Origin: an uncultured Gammaproteobacteria bacterium
GTDB lineage: Bacteria > Patescibacteriota > Microgenomatia > UBA10105 > UBA927
Reading direction: 5' to 3'
Assembly (NCBI GenBank): GCA_964573695.1
Contig: CAZNKB010000001.1
Span: 132,497 to 196,496, forward strand
Length of the DNA stretch: 64,000 nucleotides
Shown here: positions 40,329-48,664 of the stretch, one piece after another
Layout: every line of letters starts with the position of its first letter
Numbering within the stretch: position 1 is the first letter of the stretch
Made by a program: the position numbers and the translations under genes
Notes under the pieces: generated by a model
Told to the model about the DNA's origin: nothing
The model's input: only the letters and a program-made list of their open reading frames with translations
Databases searched by the model: none

Positions 40329-41426
40329 ATGCGCATTCTGGCAATCGAAACATCCTGCGACGAAACCGCTGCGGCAGTCGTAGAAAACGGCGTCCGCATT
40401 GTCACAAATGCGGTCGCTACGTCAAAGGAGATGCACGAAAAATACGGGGGGATCGTACCCGAAGTGGCCGCCCGCATGCAGCTTGAATACATTATTCCCG
40501 TTATTACGGAAGCACTTAGTCCATTGGCCCACGGCCATGACAACCGCGCAATCATAGAACACCATATCGACGCCATAGCTGTAACGGTGGGCCCGGGACT
40601 CGTCGGATCGCTTCTTGTCGGCGTGGAAACCGCAAAGACACTCGGGTTTGTCACCCATAAACCGGTGATCCCCGTCAATCATGTCCTGGCGCATATGTAT
40701 GCAAATTTCATTAACACAACACGTGACGAAAACAACTACCTAGCAAATTCAGAAAAACCGGAAATACAATTTCCCGCAATATCATTGGTTGTTTCGGGGG
40801 GACACACAGAGCTCTATCTTATGAAAAACGAAAAGGATCTCATATGGCTCGGCGGTACCCTTGATGACGCGGCCGGCGAGTGCTTTGACAAAACAGCGCG
40901 GTTATTAGGGTTCGGTCATGGAGGCGGTGTCGCAATTCAGGAGGCAGCCAGATCATCCGCAGGTCACAAATCCCAATTCACCGGTCTTTTACCCCGACCC
41001 ATGCTGGGAAAAGAAAACGTGTATAATTTTTCGTTCAGCGGACTAAAAACCGCAATCCTACGTGAAGTAACCAAACTCAAAGACCAAAATAAAATGGACG
41101 ATCAGGCCATTGCCCAATTATCACAGGAAGTGCAGGAAACAATTACCGACGTCCTGGTCAAAAAAACACTCGGGGCGGTAGATGCATTGGGGGCAAAGTC
41201 TCTTCTTCTCTCCGGAGGGGTATCTGCAAACATTCGTCTCAGAGAAAAATTCGCGTCATCGCTCGTTTCCATAGGGTCGTCCGCTCCTCAATTACACGTC
41301 CCTCCGGTGGCACTTTGTACCGACAACGCCGTATATATAGCGAGCTATGCGTATTTTCGCGGTATAAAAAAGGACTGGAAGTCTATCACTGCGCATCCCG
41401 ACCTATCTGTGGAAGTTTCCTCCTGA
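40329..41426 (+). CDS. tsaD: tRNA N6-adenosine threonylcarbamoyltransferase TsaD (Kae1/Gcp)
   Basis: MRILAIETSCDETAAAVVENG...VSGGHTELY...GGVSAN, the characteristic ASKHA-fold TsaD motifs. Confidence 0.85.
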   Translation: MRILAIETSCDETAAAVVENGVRIVTNAVATSKEMHEKYGGIVPEVAARMQLEYIIPVITEALSPLAHGHDNRAIIEHHIDAIAVTVGPGLVGSLLVGVETAKTLGFVTHKPVIPVNHVLAHMYANFINTTRDENNYLANSEKPEIQFPAISLVVSGGHTELYLMKNEKDLIWLGGTLDDAAGECFDKTARLLGFGHGGGVAIQEAARSSAGHKSQFTGLLPRPMLGKENVYNFSFSGLKTAILREVTKLKDQNKMDDQAIAQLSQEVQETITDVLVKKTLGAVDALGAKSLLLSGGVSANIRLREKFASSLVSIGSSAPQLHVPPVALCTDNAVYIASYAYFRGIKKDWKSITAHPDLSVEVSS

Positions 41427-41925
41427 TAATTTGTGCCTCCTCACGGCACCACGGAGAATATGGGGCCGGATTGGCATCCAGTTGGCCTAAAAATTCTACC
41501 CAGTCTATCCATTTCCAATCGTCCGTTTCTTCGGGATTTGGTTTGGGATTACCGTCATAATGCCCGATGATAATCGGACATATTTCGTTTTCGACGATAC
41601 CGTTTACATCAGCGAAACGATACTTGTACGGAGATAATTCGGTAAGCGTTACCCCATGAATTCCCAATTCCTCCGAAAGTCTCCGCGTCGCCGCGCCTAG
41701 AGGAGTTTCGTTTGGTTGGAGATGTCCGCACACCGTGTTTGTCCACACGCCGGGAAATGTTTTTTTGGCAGACGCACGCTTGGTCAGGAGCAACTCCCCG
41801 CGTGAATTAAATAAAAACAATGAAAATGCCCGATGAAGCGGCGTATCTGTCGTATGAACCGTGTCTTTATCAGACACTCCGATCGGGTTATTCTCTTCGT
41901 CTACCAGTACAACAAGTTCTGACAT
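41386..41925 (-). CDS. idi: Isopentenyl-diphosphate delta-isomerase, type 1 (Nudix family)
   Basis: HRAFSLFLFN, TNTVCGHLQ (the Cys-containing TNTCCSHP-type motif) and the conserved Glu region E-x-E. The 3' end overlaps tsaD convergently by ~40 nt. Confidence 0.7.
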   Translation of the reverse strand: MSELVVLVDEENNPIGVSDKDTVHTTDTPLHRAFSLFLFNSRGELLLTKRASAKKTFPGVWTNTVCGHLQPNETPLGAATRRLSEELGIHGVTLTELSPYKYRFADVNGIVENEICPIIIGHYDGNPKPNPEETDDWKWIDWVEFLGQLDANPAPYSPWCREEAQIIRRKLPQIGRDAQ

Positions 41926-41938
41926 TGTTAAATAAATT

Positions 41939-42098
41939 ATAGCAGGCACGTAAGTTATTTTGGGTGGGACTACCTTGTAAGTGGGACCGCTTGGAATCGG
42001 ACCAAGTACATCGATCTTATAGCAGGCACGTAAGTTATTTTGGGTGGGACTACCTTGTAAGTGGGACCGCTTGGAATCGGACCAAGTACATCGATCTT
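41939..42098. repeat. Perfect 80-bp tandem duplication (2 copies: 41939-42018 and 42019-42098)
   Basis: ATAGCAGGCACGTAAGTTATTTTGGGTGGGACTACCTTGTAAGTGGGACCGCTTGGAATCGGACCAAGTACATCGATCTT occurs twice head-to-tail with no mismatch. Confidence 0.9.
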
Positions 42099-42253
42099 AT
42101 AAGGATCGCGTTCTACCAATGAACTACGGTCCCCTACACTTTACACCCAAAATATTAATGTTCGTGCCTGATATATCGAAAACATCAATAGTAGAATCTA
42201 CAATGGTTGTTTTCGCTATAAGGATCGCGTTCTACCAATGAACTACGGTCCCC
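42099..42253. repeat. 36-bp perfect direct repeat (42099-42134 and 42218-42253) flanking an 83-bp spacer with inverted complementarity to the 80-bp unit
   Basis: ATAAGGATCGCGTTCTACCAATGAACTACGGTCCCC x2. The spacer contains CACCCAAAATATTAATGTTCGTGCCTGAT, an imperfect reverse complement of AGCAGGCACGTAAGTTATTTTGGGTG at the 5' end of the 80-bp unit. Confidence 0.85.
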
Positions 42254-42344
42254 ACAAAATTCACCAAAACGATAACGTTGCCTGACAACGGAAACTATTA
42301 CCCTAACGGTATAGATTGTATCAAAGCTGCAAGACGCGTGCTAC

Positions 42345-43742
42345 TTACGCCTGAAGAAGTTCTTCCATGCGGGCCTCTATTTCATAGGAGCGTTTCTTGG
42401 TTTTGGCAAATATGATAAAAGAAAATTTCTGCATACGCAGTAAATTTTCTGACGTCAGGATGACACCCTCTTTGGTTTCTTTGTTATACAGTATAGGTAA
42501 AAGACGGTCGAACAGCTGTGAAAAAGTAAGCCGTTTGAGATGTGGAACCATATATCCGTTATTGGAAAAAAGATATGTATCGAACATAAAGTTCTCACCG
42601 AACAACGCAACTGCCGTCGCGTAGACGAAGGTTCCGCCGGTACTCCGCACGTTACTCTCTGCGACATAGATGTCTCCGTTTCTCCCCGCGACACAGTCGA
42701 CATCAAAATATCCGCGGTATCCAGCCTGCGCAAATCTCTCTGCTATGTAAAAACCGGTATCCTTTATCTGTGCGGCCACCCTCTCCGGCATAATATCATC
42801 GCCTACCTCAATACCATGAAACTGCCCGCTTTTGTCTACAAGGACGCCACAATGATACAGAAAATCTATATGTCCGTTCCTCGAAATTTTAAATTCGACA
42901 TTGGGGTTTCCTCCGGCGACGCTCATGCTTACCGGTATGAGTTTTTCTATGATAATCGGGAATTGCTGCCAATAGGCATCTTTTTTCAAAAGGTCGAATA
43001 TTTTTTCCTGGCACGCATGAAATTCCACGGGTAAATCCCCGGGTCGAAATATCTCTACCCCAAGACCCGAATGACCTTTATTCGTCTTGATGACGACGCC
43101 CTGCTCTTTTATGTACCTAATAGCGGCAATTTTTGCAGCGTCCTCTATCCCGAAACAGATAACGCCGTCTGCCATTTTGAAATCCGGCTCCTCATTGCTG
43201 CTTTGTTGGGCAAGTTGTCTGATACCCGATTTACTGCCAAAAAAATTTACCGTCCATGCGTCCTCTTCATCCGGGGCGTCGGGCGTAAAGACGGTCAGTC
43301 CTTTTTCACGAAGCGAATGCACCAAATGAAGGAACGGCTGGCTCGCTGAGTAGCTGGTCAGCGTAAGTTTTTTTGTTGAGTTTGCCGCTTCAATAAGCGC
43401 GTTCATGATAGAAGGATCGTGGAGAATATCCTCACAAATAACGCCGCTATGTTGGCCGGTCGTTAACACGGTGAGCTTAGAGTCAGGAAACAACGAGCGA
43501 AAATATGCCAGAAACCGATCGCTCACACTTTGTGGTGTGATATAGAGAACCTCATCTTTTTCCCCGGCGAACTGAAACATCCGTGAGTCGCCCAAGTATC
43601 CGTTCTCAACAATTTCCGCACTCCGGGCGTCTGCGTTAGACATCGCAGAGATAAATGGCCACACGTCCTCAGACATGTTGAATATATATACGAGGACGTT
43701 ATGCTTTTTCTCCGGAACAATTTCTGCTGTCGATCCGTTCAT
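42345..43742 (-). CDS. ATP-grasp-like ligase domain protein (hypothetical)
   Basis: 465 aa. The C-terminal half (...GHSGLGVEIF..., ...YFDVDCVAGRNGDIYVAESNVR...) resembles the ATP-grasp catalytic core. The N-terminal half is unassigned. Confidence 0.4.
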   Translation of the reverse strand: MNGSTAEIVPEKKHNVLVYIFNMSEDVWPFISAMSNADARSAEIVENGYLGDSRMFQFAGEKDEVLYITPQSVSDRFLAYFRSLFPDSKLTVLTTGQHSGVICEDILHDPSIMNALIEAANSTKKLTLTSYSASQPFLHLVHSLREKGLTVFTPDAPDEEDAWTVNFFGSKSGIRQLAQQSSNEEPDFKMADGVICFGIEDAAKIAAIRYIKEQGVVIKTNKGHSGLGVEIFRPGDLPVEFHACQEKIFDLLKKDAYWQQFPIIIEKLIPVSMSVAGGNPNVEFKISRNGHIDFLYHCGVLVDKSGQFHGIEVGDDIMPERVAAQIKDTGFYIAERFAQAGYRGYFDVDCVAGRNGDIYVAESNVRSTGGTFVYATAVALFGENFMFDTYLFSNNGYMVPHLKRLTFSQLFDRLLPILYNKETKEGVILTSENLLRMQKFSFIIFAKTKKRSYEIEARMEELLQA

Positions 43743-43847: not shown

Positions 43848-46196
43848 TTATAATCTCGCCCGCTCCTGAATTTCCGCCTCAATAAGTTCGCGGGCTTGAC
43901 CGTATTTCAATCGGGAGAGTTGAATAATCGCTTTGGCGACTTCCTTGTTTTGCTCAGCGGAAACAACCTTCATGTCTTTCGACAGATCGATACTAAACGG
44001 TTTGACTGGTTCATTATGTACGATTGTTTTGATATACGCATTGTATTTATCAATATTGATGAGATCAATTTCATTAAACGTCGGCTGATATTCATGCTGA
44101 AGATAATTCGCGTCCGTTACTCCAACACGGAATGTGATAAGCGTACCGACGTTTCCGAAAACGGCGTTTTTCACCTCTTCTTCCATTTGTCCGATAAATT
44201 GGTTGGCGACGGTAAGACTAAGTCGATATTTCCGCGCTTCGGAAAGGATTTGCGCGAAATCCGGAGTGGCGAAATTTTGGAACTCGTCGACGTAGAGATA
44301 AAAATCGCGCCGCTTATCTTCGGATACGTCCTGTCTGCTCATCGCGGCAATCAGTATCCTGGGAACCAGAATCAACCCCAAAAAATTACTATTCTCTTCT
44401 CCTAATTTACCCTTGGAAAGATTAACCAGTAATATTTTCCCTTCGTCCATAACTTTCCTGAAATTAAAACTCGACTGCGATTGCCCGATAATATTACGCA
44501 TGAGCTTATTCGTGACGAAGCGTCCGAATTTGGAAACAATGTAATCAAGAACCTCTGATTTATGGAAATCCGCCGTCTGGGCGATTTGATCCGTCCAATA
44601 ACGACGGATGATCGGATCCTGTACTTTGGGCAATAATTCCTGGACAAAGTTACTGTCGGTAAGGATGCGCACTACCTCGATAAACGTGCTTCCCGGTTCG
44701 CTCATTACCGTCAACATGGCGTTTCTGACTGCGTGTTCGAACCGCGGCCCGATAATGCCCGTTTTCTGCGGATCATACAACTTATACATAAGTCCCACGA
44801 TAGATGTCACGACAAAATGTTTCTGCTCCTCCGTTTCCGCCTCCAACATATTGAGTCCCATAGGCCGTTCGGTATCCGAAGGATCAAAATAAATCACATC
44901 CTCCGCACGATCGGCCGGAATACGAGCAAGTATTCCGTCGATCAAATCCCCGTGCGGATCAATGACGGCAAGCCCTTTGCCGGCCTTGATATCCTGAATG
45001 ACGAGCTCTTCAAGGAGTTGCGATTTACCCGTACCCGTTTTTCCAATGACGTACATATGACGACGGCGATCCTCATCACCTATATATATCGGACGATCCA
45101 TACCCCTATATCTGGATATACCGATGAACTGACCGCTGGAAGCTATCTGCATCGGTGCCGGCGCGCGCTTGGCATTCAGCCAAAAAATATGGGGTGTTTC
45201 GACTGATTTATTCGGGAGATGATAAATGGTAGCTAACTCATCGCTGTTGAGCACCCCGTATTGTTTGAAAAATGGCAGATTCACCATGGGAAAATACCGG
45301 TAAATAAAATCGATCATAAAAAACTTCCTCATGGGATGTTTTACTTTCGAAAAATGATTATGATCCGAGGTAAACTGATGAAACGATGTAATGAGGTTTT
45401 CCAGATGTGCATCGGCGGCCTCTTTGGTTGTCGAGCTGACGACTAGCCGAATGACAGTGTTGAATCCAGGTTTCGAGACTTTCTGTTCAATGGATTCAAG
45501 CGTTTTCGGGTCGACCTTGAAGCTTGCTTTCTCGGGATTTGCTTCGTTTTTCTTCGTTTTGGATATGTATGATCTCCCAAGCCCCGCCCATTTGCTATCC
45601 GCCGGCTGAATAAGGATCTGAATGGCAGCCCCCTCGCCTTCGGACATTTTTGCAAGAACCGATGTCAGTGACGAAAGCGGATCTATCGGAAGATCGCGAT
45701 ATATCCGGATCGGGAGGTAATCGGAATTTTTGGGAGTAAGGGCAGCAAACGAGACTTTACCGGTTTCACTGAATATATTGTACTCATCGACGATTCTCAG
45801 ATCCGCACCGGGATATGAACCGTGTATCTGTTTTTCAATCAAATCGACAAAATGTTTGGGCGCTGCGATATAAAACCGTATATCTTCACGCTTAGCCACT
45901 ATCTCAAACGATATGTGCTCCTGTGGCTTGAGAAATGACCAAAATCCGCCATGATGAAGCGAGTGTAAACTGGCGAACATTTGTTCTGCTGCATCGATTT
46001 TTATCTCGTTGTCCCGCGGCGTCGCCACCTGAATGAGGGTATATTCCATGGAGTGTTTTTCCCGGTCACGATATTTCCACAAAATAAACAACGCGTATCC
46101 CAAAGCGGCAAACCCGATAAGACAAAACGTCAGGATTATAAGTGATATCCCCAATACTTCCAGCTGATAGGTGATGTCGGCAAATTCTAACGGCAT
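43848..46196 (-). CDS. VirB4/VirD4 (TraG/TraD)-type FtsK-HerA superfamily P-loop ATPase with N-terminal TM helix and ~330-aa uncharacterised extracytoplasmic domain
   Basis: Start taken at MPLEFAD (46194-46196). One TM (LGISLIILTFCLIGFAALGYALFILW). Walker A YVIGKTGTGKSQLLEEL, Walker B/DEAH-like LYVDEFQNF, and a C-terminal KYRLSLTVANQ segment typical of T4SS coupling/DNA-transfer ATPases. Confidence 0.6.
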   Translation of the reverse strand: MPLEFADITYQLEVLGISLIILTFCLIGFAALGYALFILWKYRDREKHSMEYTLIQVATPRDNEIKIDAAEQMFASLHSLHHGGFWSFLKPQEHISFEIVAKREDIRFYIAAPKHFVDLIEKQIHGSYPGADLRIVDEYNIFSETGKVSFAALTPKNSDYLPIRIYRDLPIDPLSSLTSVLAKMSEGEGAAIQILIQPADSKWAGLGRSYISKTKKNEANPEKASFKVDPKTLESIEQKVSKPGFNTVIRLVVSSTTKEAADAHLENLITSFHQFTSDHNHFSKVKHPMRKFFMIDFIYRYFPMVNLPFFKQYGVLNSDELATIYHLPNKSVETPHIFWLNAKRAPAPMQIASSGQFIGISRYRGMDRPIYIGDEDRRRHMYVIGKTGTGKSQLLEELVIQDIKAGKGLAVIDPHGDLIDGILARIPADRAEDVIYFDPSDTERPMGLNMLEAETEEQKHFVVTSIVGLMYKLYDPQKTGIIGPRFEHAVRNAMLTVMSEPGSTFIEVVRILTDSNFVQELLPKVQDPIIRRYWTDQIAQTADFHKSEVLDYIVSKFGRFVTNKLMRNIIGQSQSSFNFRKVMDEGKILLVNLSKGKLGEENSNFLGLILVPRILIAAMSRQDVSEDKRRDFYLYVDEFQNFATPDFAQILSEARKYRLSLTVANQFIGQMEEEVKNAVFGNVGTLITFRVGVTDANYLQHEYQPTFNEIDLINIDKYNAYIKTIVHNEPVKPFSIDLSKDMKVVSAEQNKEVAKAIIQLSRLKYGQARELIEAEIQERARL

Positions 46197-46200
46197 AACA

Positions 46201-46647
46201 TTATGATACTTTCGTTCGCACGGTTTTTCCGGAAATAGATGTGATCGTAAGGTGTACTTGTTGCAGCTGTCTCTTGCACCACTCGGCAAGCCAGCGCCAT
46301 GACGAAAGAATACTCTGATGAAGTCCTTTGGCGATTTGGTCGTCGGTAAGTGGAAGTGCTATGGTCGGCGGAGGGGCAGCTATCGCGACGGAGTCTCCCA
46401 AAGGCGCTACTCCCATACGCTCAACGATTTTGGGCAACACGACCGAATCAGAGCGCATTCTCACGCCGGCTTTGGCAACCTCGGCCGGTAGCTCGGTTTC
46501 TTTACCAAATTCCGTAATAACAGGCGATTCGACCGGTGCGGGTGAAAGCGGGGCTACTTCTTTTGCCATGCTTCCTGTTCTCGTCTGCGGAGACGGCGGC
46601 GCAGGAGTCGATGATGATGTGCTAGGCAGGGTGTCCATATAATTCAT
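46201..46647 (-). CDS. Hypothetical Pro/Ser-rich 148-aa protein, translationally coupled to the downstream ATPase
   Basis: Start chosen at MNYMD (46645-46647). Its stop abuts the ATG of the ATPase gene. Low-complexity PAPPSP/PAPVESP N-terminus, conserved-looking C-terminus (WRWLAEWCKRQL). Confidence 0.35.
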   Translation of the reverse strand: MNYMDTLPSTSSSTPAPPSPQTRTGSMAKEVAPLSPAPVESPVITEFGKETELPAEVAKAGVRMRSDSVVLPKIVERMGVAPLGDSVAIAAPPPTIALPLTDDQIAKGLHQSILSSWRWLAEWCKRQLQQVHLTITSISGKTVRTKVS

Positions 46648-46651
46648 TCTA

Positions 46652-48664
46652 TCATGAAGCAAAGGCAAATATGATGCCTCGCTGTGGCAAATCTCCCTTT
46701 CTTCTTTTTCGCTTGGGGCGCCCCCCGTTCGTTTGCGGCACGGCGACCTGTACTCCCGGCTGGCCGGATTCCCGAAGCAACACAAGATACCGAATTATCG
46801 CAAGCATGATCCATGGAGCTTGTACTGTTTCACCTTGTGCTCCTGTCGCCTCTGTGTCCCGTACGCTGTCACGATGCGCTTTTTTTGTTTTATTGGCATG
46901 TGGCACTTCCGACCTCGCAGGGTATGACACGATCCACGAAAGAATGAGTGCAAATATGAAGCGTCCGGTAATTATGGTCCTATGTTCCAGCGTATTCTCT
47001 TGCGCGGTAGCCACATCGGGAATTGCGATACGCCGCTTGTCTTGGTCCGAACGCGGATAAGGAGCCGGTAGCGGAAGAAAAAATAGCCGCGCAAGAACCT
47101 GCATGACTTCAACCCATTGGGGCACGTTCTTTTGGGCCGGTATGGTGTTTTTTTCAATGCCGCTATAGCGTTTGCCCTGAATGAAGGTGTCAGTGCGATG
47201 TAACTCAGGAACCGATGTCATCAAGCCTACCTTCTCACGTGGCGACCCTCCTAACACGCCATTCATCCTGGTAATAAATGCGCGCCACATGATCTCTACA
47301 GGAGACCCCGAAGATATGCGTTCTTTCTTTATGTGGTTCCGCAAAATTTCTGGCGCTCCAGATTTAAGCCTCTTCTCAATATTCTTTTCTGCTTCCCCAA
47401 GGAAGGCAAACCAATGCATCGTGGCGACAGATGCCACCGGCAATACGGGTCCGTAGGCTATCATAGTTTGTGTTATCCACCATTCGGACAATATGGATTT
47501 TGGATCAACGAGTGACGAGCTCTTCTCCGGGGAAATTACGGTTATTTTTTTCTCACCCGCAGGGGAATGTTTCCCTTCTTTTGTCACACGAAGCGAATTT
47601 TTGCTGTTCCCAGGTTCAATTCTTATTGGTTTTGTGTCAGTTTTTCGCACGTAGGGGACGCTGTTTTTCTGTTTCAGCGCTTGGATTTTATCTTCGATTT
47701 GATCGCGTACATAGGCGGCAATACGGGAGACTGAGTGGGCTGCATCAGCGATAGCAGGATTATGAGAAATCTGTTCCTGAGAGCGAACTGTTCTTGTCTC
47801 ACGCGCGTAAGATACGGTCTTATCCCCGGCGAACTGGGCTATAGCTATAGTGCGGATATCTTCGGCATAAATGGATCCCTTCGTTACAAAAAAGTGCGCA
47901 TACGAATTTGTCTCTTGTGGTCTATCTTCCTGAGTACTCTTACCATGGAACTCAGAAAGATGATGCATAAGATCTTTTGCTTCTTCCGAAGAAAAATCTT
48001 TGCCGGTCGTCGCGTATAAATCGATCTGCTGCGATATCACGTCGCCGCTTTCTGACTTTTGCCAAACCTGGACGTAGCGCACGGCATCCGGATGAGACAA
48101 CACACTCACGAACCCGTTTGACGAACCGTGTACCAATTTATCCTGCATAAGAAGCTGCGCCTCATGTTCCTGTTTGTTATACGCTTGGGGATTCCCGACG
48201 AATTCCGAATATTCTTTGGTGTGCTCCCACAGTTGTGAAAGCGTCACCATTTTTCCTCCGTACTCGGTTGCAAGCTCCACGCTTCCTGTACTTGTTTGTA
48301 TGGGGCGCCAACGCACGACGGATTCTTCGTGAGCAGCCTCTTTGTGTTCGTAGGACAAATCCTGCGCAAGACGCGCTTTAAACCGGTCGACGGCATGTTC
48401 ATGAACCTGTGCGTGACTCCAATCTGGATGTTCAAGGGCAACTTCCGGCTCTATAAAATGCATGAGGGAATATGTGGCTGCCTCAGAATTGAAACTGTGG
48501 TCCCCCCGCCAAACGGGGGCATCACCCTCTCCGTCGGTGTCTCCGATAACTTGTATACCCCGAAGTGTCATACGGTCTATATACCGTTCATGTTGCTCGG
48601 AGTCACCACGCATTTGCCGTGTAAACCGCGAAGAAATATCGTATGTCGGAGATGGTTTCTCCAT
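46652..48664 (-). CDS. Large hypothetical protein (670 aa) with C-terminal hydrophobic helices and basic tail; first gene of the ATPase operon
   Basis: Long uninterrupted ORF with ordinary, non-low-complexity composition, no motif I recognise, and two C-terminal hydrophobic segments followed by KRKRRK. Four nucleotides separate it from the next gene. Confidence 0.45.
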   Translation of the reverse strand: MEKPSPTYDISSRFTRQMRGDSEQHERYIDRMTLRGIQVIGDTDGEGDAPVWRGDHSFNSEAATYSLMHFIEPEVALEHPDWSHAQVHEHAVDRFKARLAQDLSYEHKEAAHEESVVRWRPIQTSTGSVELATEYGGKMVTLSQLWEHTKEYSEFVGNPQAYNKQEHEAQLLMQDKLVHGSSNGFVSVLSHPDAVRYVQVWQKSESGDVISQQIDLYATTGKDFSSEEAKDLMHHLSEFHGKSTQEDRPQETNSYAHFFVTKGSIYAEDIRTIAIAQFAGDKTVSYARETRTVRSQEQISHNPAIADAAHSVSRIAAYVRDQIEDKIQALKQKNSVPYVRKTDTKPIRIEPGNSKNSLRVTKEGKHSPAGEKKITVISPEKSSSLVDPKSILSEWWITQTMIAYGPVLPVASVATMHWFAFLGEAEKNIEKRLKSGAPEILRNHIKKERISSGSPVEIMWRAFITRMNGVLGGSPREKVGLMTSVPELHRTDTFIQGKRYSGIEKNTIPAQKNVPQWVEVMQVLARLFFLPLPAPYPRSDQDKRRIAIPDVATAQENTLEHRTIITGRFIFALILSWIVSYPARSEVPHANKTKKAHRDSVRDTEATGAQGETVQAPWIMLAIIRYLVLLRESGQPGVQVAVPQTNGGRPKRKRRKGDLPQRGIIFAFAS

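Follow-up and report, generated by a model that had tools for sequence, protein, structure and literature searches.

Within a 64-kb window of bacterial DNA (64,000 nt of contig CAZNKB010000001.1; "the window" below always means this whole stretch), the intergenic region upstream of idi, the gene for type 1 isopentenyl-diphosphate isomerase, contains an intact tRNA-Ile gene with anticodon UAU nested between the two halves of another copy of the same gene. The insert that separates the halves is probably a non-autonomous, site-specific cassette that has repeatedly invaded, disrupted, and replaced the host's single tRNA-Ile(UAU) locus. The evidence comes from an anatomy common to several cassettes, filled and empty sites in relatives, a heterologous nest, duplication of a TATA at the insertion point, layers and their decay, and recurrence of the insert in different resident tRNAs. 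The idi gene occupies 41386 to 41925 on the minus strand (Pfam NUDIX domain; homologue records name IDI), and a preliminary description of the repeats, made from the letters of the window alone, had placed them correctly in its upstream region. Relatives of the idi protein come nearly all from Candidatus Gottesmanbacteria or other Patescibacteria, and by this protein the host is a Gottesmanbacteria-like bacterium of the Candidate Phyla Radiation (CPR). Features of the locus lie on the minus strand unless stated otherwise.

Anatomy of the nested locus

A repeat search of the window recovered a perfect 80-nt tandem pair (41937 to 42016 and 42017 to 42096) and a perfect 37-nt direct pair (42098 to 42134 and 42217 to 42253) separated by 82 nt. 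The two mutation-free 80-nt copies had been reported before and are beyond chance; the direct pair had been given as 36 nt around an 83-nt spacer, a trivial difference. Tandem Repeats Finder (TRF) extends the 80-nt periodicity to 42101 (2.1 copies, 100% match), and the unit is bordered by TATAA three times (5+75+5+75+5 = 165 nt), which is the exact extent of the TRF match. The imperfect reverse complement of the 80-nt unit that had been seen in the spacer is also real: CAGGCACG...TTTTGGGTG (42170 to 42144) is complementary to CACCCAAAA...CGTGCCTG in each unit, and the window's leader/trailer duplex that these segments form has a predicted energy of −28.3 kcal/mol, compared to −12.2 ± 2.7 kcal/mol for shuffled sequences, none of which (0/500) was as good.

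All of these repeats are parts of a tRNA locus. The 37-nt repeat is the 5' half of tRNA-Ile, ending at canonical position 37/38; the 80-nt unit is the 3' half plus a 44-nt trailer; and the complementary segments are a leader and a trailer on either side of an intact tRNA gene. That gene spans 42062 to 42133, at the junction of the 37-nt and 80-nt repeats, and the earlier statement that no tRNA cloverleaf could be folded here was wrong. ARAGORN reports a single tRNA in the whole window, tRNA-Ile(UAU) at 42061 to 42133, and the covariance search of Rfam that had been recommended returned a full-length match to the tRNA model RF00005 at 42062 to 42133 (63.2 bits, E = 8e−13, gathering score 29, model positions 1 to 71). 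The suggestion of a structured noncoding RNA thus stands only insofar as this RNA is a tRNA. This innermost gene is presumably the working copy. An array of clustered regularly interspaced short palindromic repeats (CRISPR) had rightly been discounted: the repeat families have two copies each and tRNA content, and we found no set of three or more short repeats with unique spacers.

On one side of the intact gene lies 5' half copy (a), at 42217 to 42253, which consists of G-1 and the first 36 nt of tRNA-Ile(UAU), ends in ...CCTTATA at 37/38, and is 100% identical to 42098 to 42134. On the other side, 3' half copy (b), at 41982 to 42017, contains the last 36 nt (canonical positions 38 to 73) and is 100% identical to 42062 to 42097. 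By their sequence, these would be the left and right pieces of a split older copy of the gene. When copies (a) and (b) are joined in silico, ARAGORN recognizes a tRNA-Ile, as it does for the joined outer halves of all five nests described below. The full order along the minus strand is a promoter-like element, a 13-nt remnant, an older leader (L'), 5' half (a), a hairpin, TATA, leader L, the tRNA gene, trailer T(a), 3' half (b), trailer T(b), A-TTTATTTAACA, and the ATG of idi (41925). Annotation of such loci calls for care, since tRNA finders return the inner gene alone and the flanking half-genes resemble anonymous repeats.

Split halves equivalent to those of the window were found at four related loci (L082, L281, L004, and L005), and the five distinct cassettes were compared. 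Each consists of a hairpin (GCGAAAAC..GTTTTCGA), a TATA, a leader of ~37 nt, a full tRNA-Ile(UAU) gene, and a trailer, measures ~190 to 215 bp, and contains no open reading frame (ORF). The order and the three junctions are identical in all five: J1 reads ..CCT-TATA-GCGAAAAC (CTTATA-GCGAAAAC), J2 reads GTTTTCGA-TATA-TC[A/G]GG[C/T]AC, and J3 reads CGT[G/A]CC[T/C]GC-TATA-AGAT. In the window, hairpin A (GCGAAAAC-loop-GTTTTCGA, 42176 to 42216) forms the left end of the cassette and folds under DNA parameters with z = −5.7. The hairpin folds in 5/5 cassettes (z = −3.4 to −6.4), with an invariant 7-bp foot and a top that is variable yet self-complementary. The internal TATA at the boundary of hairpin A and the leader (42172 to 42175; J2, GTTTTCGA TATA TCAGGCACG) lies within the most conserved block of the cassette, to which the sequences GTTTTCGATATATCRGGYAC and GTTTTCGATATATCRGGYACRAAC belong. 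The block around J2 and AACATTAATA may serve as a recombination site, a promoter, or both.

The current leader L (42135 to 42171) and the 44-nt trailer T(a) (42018 to 42061), which ends ..CCTGCTATA in the duplicated TATA, are the left and right arms of an inverted repeat around the tRNA gene; a second, identical 44-nt trailer, T(b), lies at 41938 to 41981. Within the leader, helix 1 (CAGGCACG, 42163 to 42170) and helix 2 (TTTTGGGTG, 42144 to 42152) are complementary to trailer arms CGTGCCTG (42023 to 42030) and CACCCAAAA (42038 to 42046), in that order. Aligned with the reverse complement of its trailer, the leader matches at 28 to 30 of ~35 to 38 positions in the window, L082, and L281, which is nearly its whole length, and the terminal 8 to 9 nt of the arms are conserved or covary in all five cassettes. 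The cassette therefore has terminal inverted repeats (TIRs), as expected of miniature inverted-repeat transposable elements (MITEs). Leader/trailer complementarity was significant in 4/4 cassettes tested against shuffles; the pairing in the L281 cassette, folded without shuffles, has a predicted energy of −27.8 kcal/mol. Homologues of the trailer are found in L281, L082, L004, L005, L090, L009, and L006.

In an alignment of four nests, 33/33 tested pairs were complementary in every sequence, and compensatory changes occurred in six of them, the outer acceptor stem accounting for three, leader/trailer helix 1 for two, and the outer anticodon stem for one. Helix 2 differs in another way: its sequence is unrelated between the cassettes of the window, L082, L004, and L281 but is always complementary, for example TTTTGGGTG/CACCCAAAA in the window, GTGTGTGATAC/GTATCACACAC in L082, and, with two G.T pairs, TTTTGGTGTGAT/ATCACGCTAAAA in L281. 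Such pairing without a fixed sequence suggests that selection acts on a folded single strand, of RNA or DNA, or on complementarity itself, and not on a sequence bound by a protein. The leader/trailer pairings contain six G.U and two A.C mismatches, too few for a choice between RNA and DNA.

Filled, empty, and heterologous sites in relatives

Extra tRNA fragments occur in 11 of 122 related loci that bear tRNA-Ile(UAU). L002 and L082, the flanks of which are 92 to 95% identical, are an empty and a filled version of the same site. In L002, a plain tRNA gene abuts the ATG of idi. In L082, the same tRNA is split at CTTATA|...|TATAAG by ~215 nt that are not present in L002 and comprise the hairpin, TATA, leader, full tRNA, and trailer, while the outer 3' half still abuts idi. 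The empty site has one TATA, and in the filled site a TATA borders the insert at either end; the inserts in L281, L004, and L005 are likewise flanked by TATA, as in a target-site duplication.

L281, the closest relative found, has the same gene order as the window and an idi protein 90% identical to that of the window. Its outer halves are those of a type-B tRNA (GGGTCAG...CTGACCC) at the native position, split as in L082, and its inner gene is the type-A tRNA of the window (GGGACCG...), which differs from the outer one at 11 of 72 positions. The nearest of these differences lie 9 nt (left) and 5 nt (right) from the junctions, and the outer halves are pure type B up to there; it follows that the insert brings its own tRNA. 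Homology of 5 to 9 nt at the junctions appears too short for ordinary homologous recombination. No co-conversion was seen at the junctions, and L281 would thus lack the kind that double-strand-break homing usually leaves.

A heterologous tRNA is also enclosed in L004 and L005, where a GGGCCAG tRNA lies within GGGTGTG/CACACCC halves, with degenerate half-copies further out. L004 is identical to L084, and L005 to L086, in separately deposited assemblies, which argues against an artefact. Between L004 and L005 the outer halves are identical at 72/72 positions and the flanks at 80 to 84%. Decayed or degenerate outer halves are found in L003/L083, L009, and L004, and three loci (L006, L090, and L009) contain only tRNA, trailer, and 3' half. 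Nests are confined to tRNAs with the anticodon arm ATCCTTATAAGAT, a restriction that fits target specificity and is confounded with phylogeny. Six further contigs from relatives have only plain, un-nested loci. The Logan contigs L292 and L294 start exactly at nucleotide 1 of tRNA-Ile(UAU); evidently, assemblies break at this gene, as polymorphism for nests within populations would lead one to expect.

A second kind of insert occurs at the same tRNA in L009 (2520 to 2822), L124 (2537 to 2852), and L050 (1427 to 1662), and also in L043 and L144. It contains a 78-aa GIY-YIG nuclease ORF (PF01541, E = 1.8e−13) directly upstream of an intact tRNA-Ile and preceded by a tRNA 5' fragment, the D-arm of which is interrupted by a GC-rich hairpin of ~49 nt (CCCGCCCGCCATCGCAAGC..GCGTTGCGGGCGGG); both orientations of the hairpin are found, and its place in the D-arm is one of two. 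This insert looks like a free-standing homing-endonuclease cassette; it is absent from the window. In L050 (1663 to 2122), the intact tRNA-Ile is followed by two pseudo-copies with a period of 193 nt, in which the first 5 nt are missing, the D-loop contains the GC-rich hairpin, and the T-loop has gained an extra TT (TGGTTTTCGATCC versus TGGTTCGATCC). L003 has an ORF of ~164 aa (2494 to 2988) between the tRNA nest and idi that has no Pfam match, bears a repeated W-H-[YH]-H-x3-P-T-C motif, and has homologues in L004, L005, and apparently L289 (85 to 576).

A proposed self-replacing cassette, its history, and rival explanations

In the mechanism that we propose, the cassette would enter the anticodon loop of the resident gene at the loop's TATA (CTTATA|AG), duplicating the TATA and splitting the gene into a 5' and a 3' half, neither of which alone would yield a tRNA. 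The cassette's own tRNA would then take over decoding. Since the new gene would present the same target, insertion could repeat and give Russian-doll layers, the outer pieces of which would decay or be deleted. Insertion would be catalyzed in trans by a putative site-specific recombinase or transposase. The outer halves are presumably dead, the leader may supply a promoter, and complementation by the cargo tRNA would let the host tolerate the insertion and make its loss difficult. The junctions follow the logic of attachment (att) sites, J1 being B-TATA-P' and J3 being P-TATA-B', with an inverted P-TATA-P' kept within the cassette as J2. Junctions of this type are equally compatible with a transposase and target-site duplication. 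The free form would consist of the tRNA and one long hairpin with a TATA in each arm, which recalls folded single-strand substrates such as the attC sites of integrons and the attP of CTX-phi. On a more speculative note, the cassette might integrate as folded single-stranded DNA via a host Xer- or integron-type recombinase.

The window appears to preserve more than one round of this process. At the native position of the gene, alignment suggests that GGGTAATAGTTTC (42291 to 42303) is a decayed 13-nt remnant of the 5' end of the oldest tRNA-Ile, of type B (GGGTCAGTAGCTC); the intact type-B 5' half of L281 begins 5 nt further from the conserved TACAAT..CTATACCGT than GGGTAATAGTTTC does, and L282 has a similar remnant, GGGTAGTGATATTC. 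Next to it, L' (GTCAGGCAACGTTATCGTTTTGGTGAATTTTGT, 42254 to 42286) aligns as the leader of an older layer. It is ~65% like the current leader L, as judged by eye, still pairs imperfectly with the trailer, and has a promoter-proximal block (GTTTTGGTG..ATTTT..) in common with the leader of the L281 cassette. A terminator-like hairpin, CGTTGTCAGGCAACG followed by TTATCGTTTT (42276 to 42290), lies within L', upstream of the split 5' half. The trailer family includes the trailer of the L281 cassette, an older L281 trailer beside idi (T_old), and the L282 trailer. The junction of T(b) with idi matches the trailer-idi junctions of L281 (T_old) and L282, with ..GTGCCTGCTATAA-TTTATTTAA[C/T]AATG common to the window and L281.

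By these alignments, the window looks like an L281-like nest with a decayed outer layer, plus one more recent round. The simplest history would have three steps: a type-B gene with a trailer beside idi was invaded by a type-A cassette, giving the state of L281; the outer type-B halves decayed or were deleted, giving a state like L282; and a further, very recent event produced the perfect repeats of the 5' half and of the 3' half plus trailer. For the last step, a second full cassette may have inserted, after which the trailers were homogenized or recombined; alternatively, one-sided repair may have added the 5' half, hairpin, and leader, the 80-nt unit being duplicated separately by slippage at TATAA.

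Several observations weigh against the self-replacing cassette. T(b) is a 100% identical copy of T(a), whereas L' resembles L at only ~65%, and T(b) is not separated from idi by a third 3' half; a further deletion or conversion event is therefore required, or the 80-nt repeat arose separately by slippage at TATAA. The outer halves of L004 and L005 are over-conserved for dead DNA unless the insertions are recent or gene conversion acts. A consensus scan found no minus-strand promoter between 41850 and 42400 and no sigma-70-like promoter in the leader. No enzyme was found: the cassette has no ORF, and there is no integrase or transposase among 48 ORFs scanned in the window. Fuzzy, regular-expression, and nhmmer searches for copies of the hairpin, leader, trailer, or halves, made on the window and ~170 related loci, gave none outside this one locus. 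No exact match to the conserved 20-mer TTTTCGATATATCRGGYACG was found in IMG/VR. A 14-mer across the junction has at least 120 matches there, but none among the matches listed has the hairpin, and they look like chance. A BLAST search of the locus against phage and plasmid collections (INPHARED and PLSDB) gave no match. Since there is one locus only, mobility is deduced from allele comparisons alone.

These searches also bear on the earlier suggestion of a MITE-like element with inverted repeats or of an insertion or att scar. It came near to what the comparative data indicate, but the inverted repeats flank an intact tRNA gene and are not the ends of an empty MITE. The dispersed copies of the repeat units that had been envisaged were not found in the window or the ~170 related loci, and we rejected a dispersed MITE, which should be multi-copy.

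The first rival explanation is that of a larger element, and we consider it unlikely. Transfer RNA genes are classic integration sites, and the outer halves could be the attL and attR scars of a phage, integrative and conjugative element (ICE), or plasmid that used the anticodon loop as attB without rebuilding the tRNA and carried its own tRNA-Ile, as in tRNA-dependent lysogeny, with the cassette as the leftover of an interior deletion. A reconstructed attP (CGTGCCTGC-TATA-GCGAAAAC) recombined with attB (ATCCT-TATA-AGAT) would indeed yield J1 and J3, and disruption combined with complementation is documented for mycobacteriophages (PMC10865867). However, the minimal content and its order do not vary among five independent cassettes, and none retains any other element DNA, a uniformity that random internal deletions would not produce; nor does an integrase lie near any nest, the neighbors being the pre-ATP-grasp gene described below and idi in the window and all nests. 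The lack of matches to TTTTCGATATATCRGGYACG in IMG/VR and to the locus in the phage and plasmid collections also speaks against such an element, and on these results a phage or plasmid origin was rejected.

Slightly more doubtful is a spliced intron, in which the nest would be transcribed from the native promoter and protein enzymes would cut at 37/38 and ligate the ends, so that both outer and inner tRNAs are made; the leader/trailer helix and a 9-bp junction helix would bring the outer halves together. The break does fall exactly at canonical 37/38, the nest is predicted to fold into a cloverleaf whose anticodon stem continues into the junction helix with the cut sites 4 bp apart, and the outer acceptor strands always pair with each other. 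The 72/72 identity of the L004 and L005 outer halves despite 16 to 20% divergence of the flanks, and the perfect outer halves of the window next to a diverged L', would be expected as well. Recency or gene conversion can equally explain the perfect identity of outer and inner copies, and the host is a bacterium, a domain in which we know of no tRNA splicing endonuclease. The predicted structure is also wrong for an archaeal-type bulge-helix-bulge (BHB): four nests fold as a continuous helix (CUUAUAGCG/CGCUAUAAG) with only C32 unpaired and no 3-nt bulges, and the cut sites, 4 bp apart, are not in bulges. An archaeal split or permuted tRNA, as suggested by the break at 37/38 and the complementary flanks, was rejected for this CPR bacterium on the same grounds. 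Nor is there a group I intron signal. A cmscan of 41000 to 43200 with permissive filters (E ≤ 1) returned no match to RF00028, only the tRNA and two chance-level matches, and we discarded a group I intron. Moreover, L003/L083 and L009 have outer halves that are clearly truncated or in decay, as have L004 and L005 in their outer layers and the window in its outermost one, and the loci with tRNA, trailer, and 3' half only (L006, L090, and L009) make no sense as introns. More doubtful again is the specific case of a new protein-spliced or non-group-I bacterial tRNA intron at 37/38 with a nested second tRNA, one transcript giving two tRNA-Ile molecules.

A local origin of the whole arrangement, by replication slippage or unequal crossing-over at a TATAA common to the anticodon loop and the trailer end, is very unlikely. 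It would account for an 80-nt unit bounded by TATAA three times, with 165 nt as the TRF extent, and a trailer ending in TATAA beside idi is ancestral in the clade (L281 T_old and L282). As an explanation of the last step only, the 80-nt duplication itself, slippage at TATAA is a credible candidate, though somewhat less likely than not. A tandem duplication, however, would leave a second hairpin and leader upstream of the outer 5' half, whereas L082 and L281 have this half directly on the native promoter, where the gene itself lies in the empty L002. Neither the different tRNA inside the halves of L281 and L004 nor the insert sequence missing from the empty site is explained. The comparisons of L082 with L002 and of L281 thus refute local duplication as a full explanation.

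Finally, it is highly improbable that the locus is a mis-joined or expanded repeat at the tRNA of co-assembled strains; an artefact is unlikely for the overall architecture and less clearly so for the 80-nt copy number in the window. Assemblers do tend to err at perfect short repeats, two Logan contigs break at position 1 of this tRNA, and no exact copy of the window's idi protein, hence no independent assembly, is on record. Yet six lineages, which come from different projects, show the same architecture with unique connecting sequence, L004 is identical to L084 and L005 to L086, and the connecting sequences are conserved and covary.

Genomic setting and known elements

The tRNA-Ile(UAU) gene lies upstream of idi in 57 of 60 genome loci. 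In most relatives its 3' end is 0 to 6 nt from the idi ATG, a gap that implies co-transcription with the tRNA and release of the idi mRNA by tRNA processing. Upstream, the promoter-like element TTTGATACAAT (42315 to 42325; extended −10-like TGATACAAT) recurs at the equivalent place in L281, L282, L009, and L090 and may be the native promoter of the tRNA locus. At the other end of the window's nest, the trailer end forms an extended −10-like TGCTATAAT (41936 to 41944), also present in L281 and represented in L282 by TGGTATAAT. The idi ATG (41923 to 41925) follows 10 nt after TGCTATAAT with no Shine-Dalgarno sequence, which suggests that the idi mRNA is leaderless. The trailer end TGCTATAA[T/G] could act as an outward-facing extended −10 and so maintain expression of idi.

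The upstream neighbor (42345 to 43742, minus strand) encodes a pre-ATP-grasp domain protein (PF18604), and the same gene (C terminus ..EIEARMEELLQ..) precedes the tRNA in L002, L006, L082, L090, L281, and L284 to L290. An accessory operon had been proposed on this side. The upstream genes are syntenic in relatives, and a scan of 48 window ORFs gave ordinary housekeeping genes of CPR bacteria, without an integrase, transposase, or GIY-YIG nuclease among them; an adjacent accessory island was therefore rejected. Further along the same strand lie a gene for an 813-aa protein with weak TraG/VirD4/TrwB/HerA-type coupling-ATPase domains (43848 to 46289) and a 670-aa ORF with no Pfam match (46652 to 48664). 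The 813-aa gene is syntenic in L281, where DUF8128 is also recognized, which marks a conserved neighborhood rather than an island. Downstream, idi converges with tsaD (40329 to 41426, plus strand), the 3' ends overlapping by 41 nt (41386 to 41426), and the overlap is called likewise in L281, L284, and L290. In L293 (1390 to 2046) and L294 (967 to 1617), an AbiEii toxin-family gene converges on idi in place of tsaD.

Classical elements that target tRNA genes, such as prophages, ICEs, and genomic islands, resemble the cassette in having the symmetric anticodon stem-loop as target and a direct repeat of part of the tRNA flanking the insert. They bring with them no more than the 3' part of the tRNA and restore the gene at attL, so that 3' fragments alone become duplicated. 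Here, in contrast, both halves are duplicated and a complete extra gene lies between them (nested 5'-5'-3'-3'), and the integrase expected within or beside an att-type insert is lacking from the ~200 nt, which contain no ORF. The closest functional analogue is tRNA-dependent lysogeny in actinobacteriophages, in which the element recombines in an essential host tRNA gene without rebuilding it and carries a same-isotype tRNA (Guerrero-Bustamante & Hatfull 2024, PMC10865867). The same two traits are seen here: the halves are not contiguous, the inner tRNA-Ile(UAU) is intact, and its sequence type differs from that of the host in L281 and L004. That system, however, involves an entire phage, which has a tyrosine integrase of its own and a core of ~10 bp, whereas the cassette is ~200 bp long with a tRNA as its sole gene and a 4-bp TATA core. 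No phage genes, integrase and repressor included, were found, consistent with the empty searches of IMG/VR, INPHARED, and PLSDB. In addition, and unlike in lysogeny, the target of the window's cassette is the same tRNA species as its cargo, so that insertion can recur inside itself, and no integrase is known.

In structure, the closest analogues are MITE-like TIR elements and anticodon-loop att sites. Small TIR elements such as Correia, RUP, and IS630-derived elements share with the cassette a small size without an ORF, imperfect TIRs (here ~37 nt), a short, A/T-rich duplicated target (here TATA), and possibly promoter-like ends. MITEs, however, are multi-copy and dispersed, whereas the cassette occupies one locus per genome and has a presumably functional gene, an extra hairpin, subterminal arms that covary instead of keeping one sequence, and no known parent transposase. 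Bacterial tRNA group I introns, such as that in Azoarcus tRNA-Ile (Williams 2020 preprint, 10.1101/2020.01.27.920355), are likewise inserts of ~200 nt in the anticodon loop, tRNA-Ile included; the window's insert instead consists of a hairpin and a tRNA in inverted repeats, with no covariance match (E ≤ 1) to a ribozyme core. The cassette lacks the defining features of group I introns, BHB introns, dispersed MITEs, and integrase-bearing islands, and a limited full-text literature search found no bacterial description of a tRNA-only cassette that nests in its own target tRNA.

If the proposed mechanism is true, the cassette is a minimal selfish element that destroys an essential, probably single-copy tRNA gene and pays with its own copy. 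The host could not shed it by imprecise deletion, since the cassette's tRNA would have replaced the destroyed gene, and the re-creation of the target by each insertion would explain the Russian-doll layers. It would also provide a concrete mechanism for horizontal replacement of a tRNA gene, by which type-A tRNA-Ile displaced type B at a fixed chromosomal position in the window's clade. Closest in appearance are the 37/38 introns and split tRNAs of Archaea and Eukarya, in which the break also lies one nucleotide 3' of the anticodon and the halves are apart, and for which a mobile element has been proposed as the cause, a model for how tRNA genes become disrupted (Sugahara et al. 2012, PMC3293823). 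The window's locus differs in its bacterial host, its decaying halves, the complete second tRNA in the "intron," and a fold without a BHB. A bacterial mobile insert that makes tRNA halves at 37/38 would nonetheless bear on the debate about the origin of tRNA introns and split tRNAs, and were the intron explanation true instead, a mobile cassette would be a living example of how they arise from anticodon-loop insertions.

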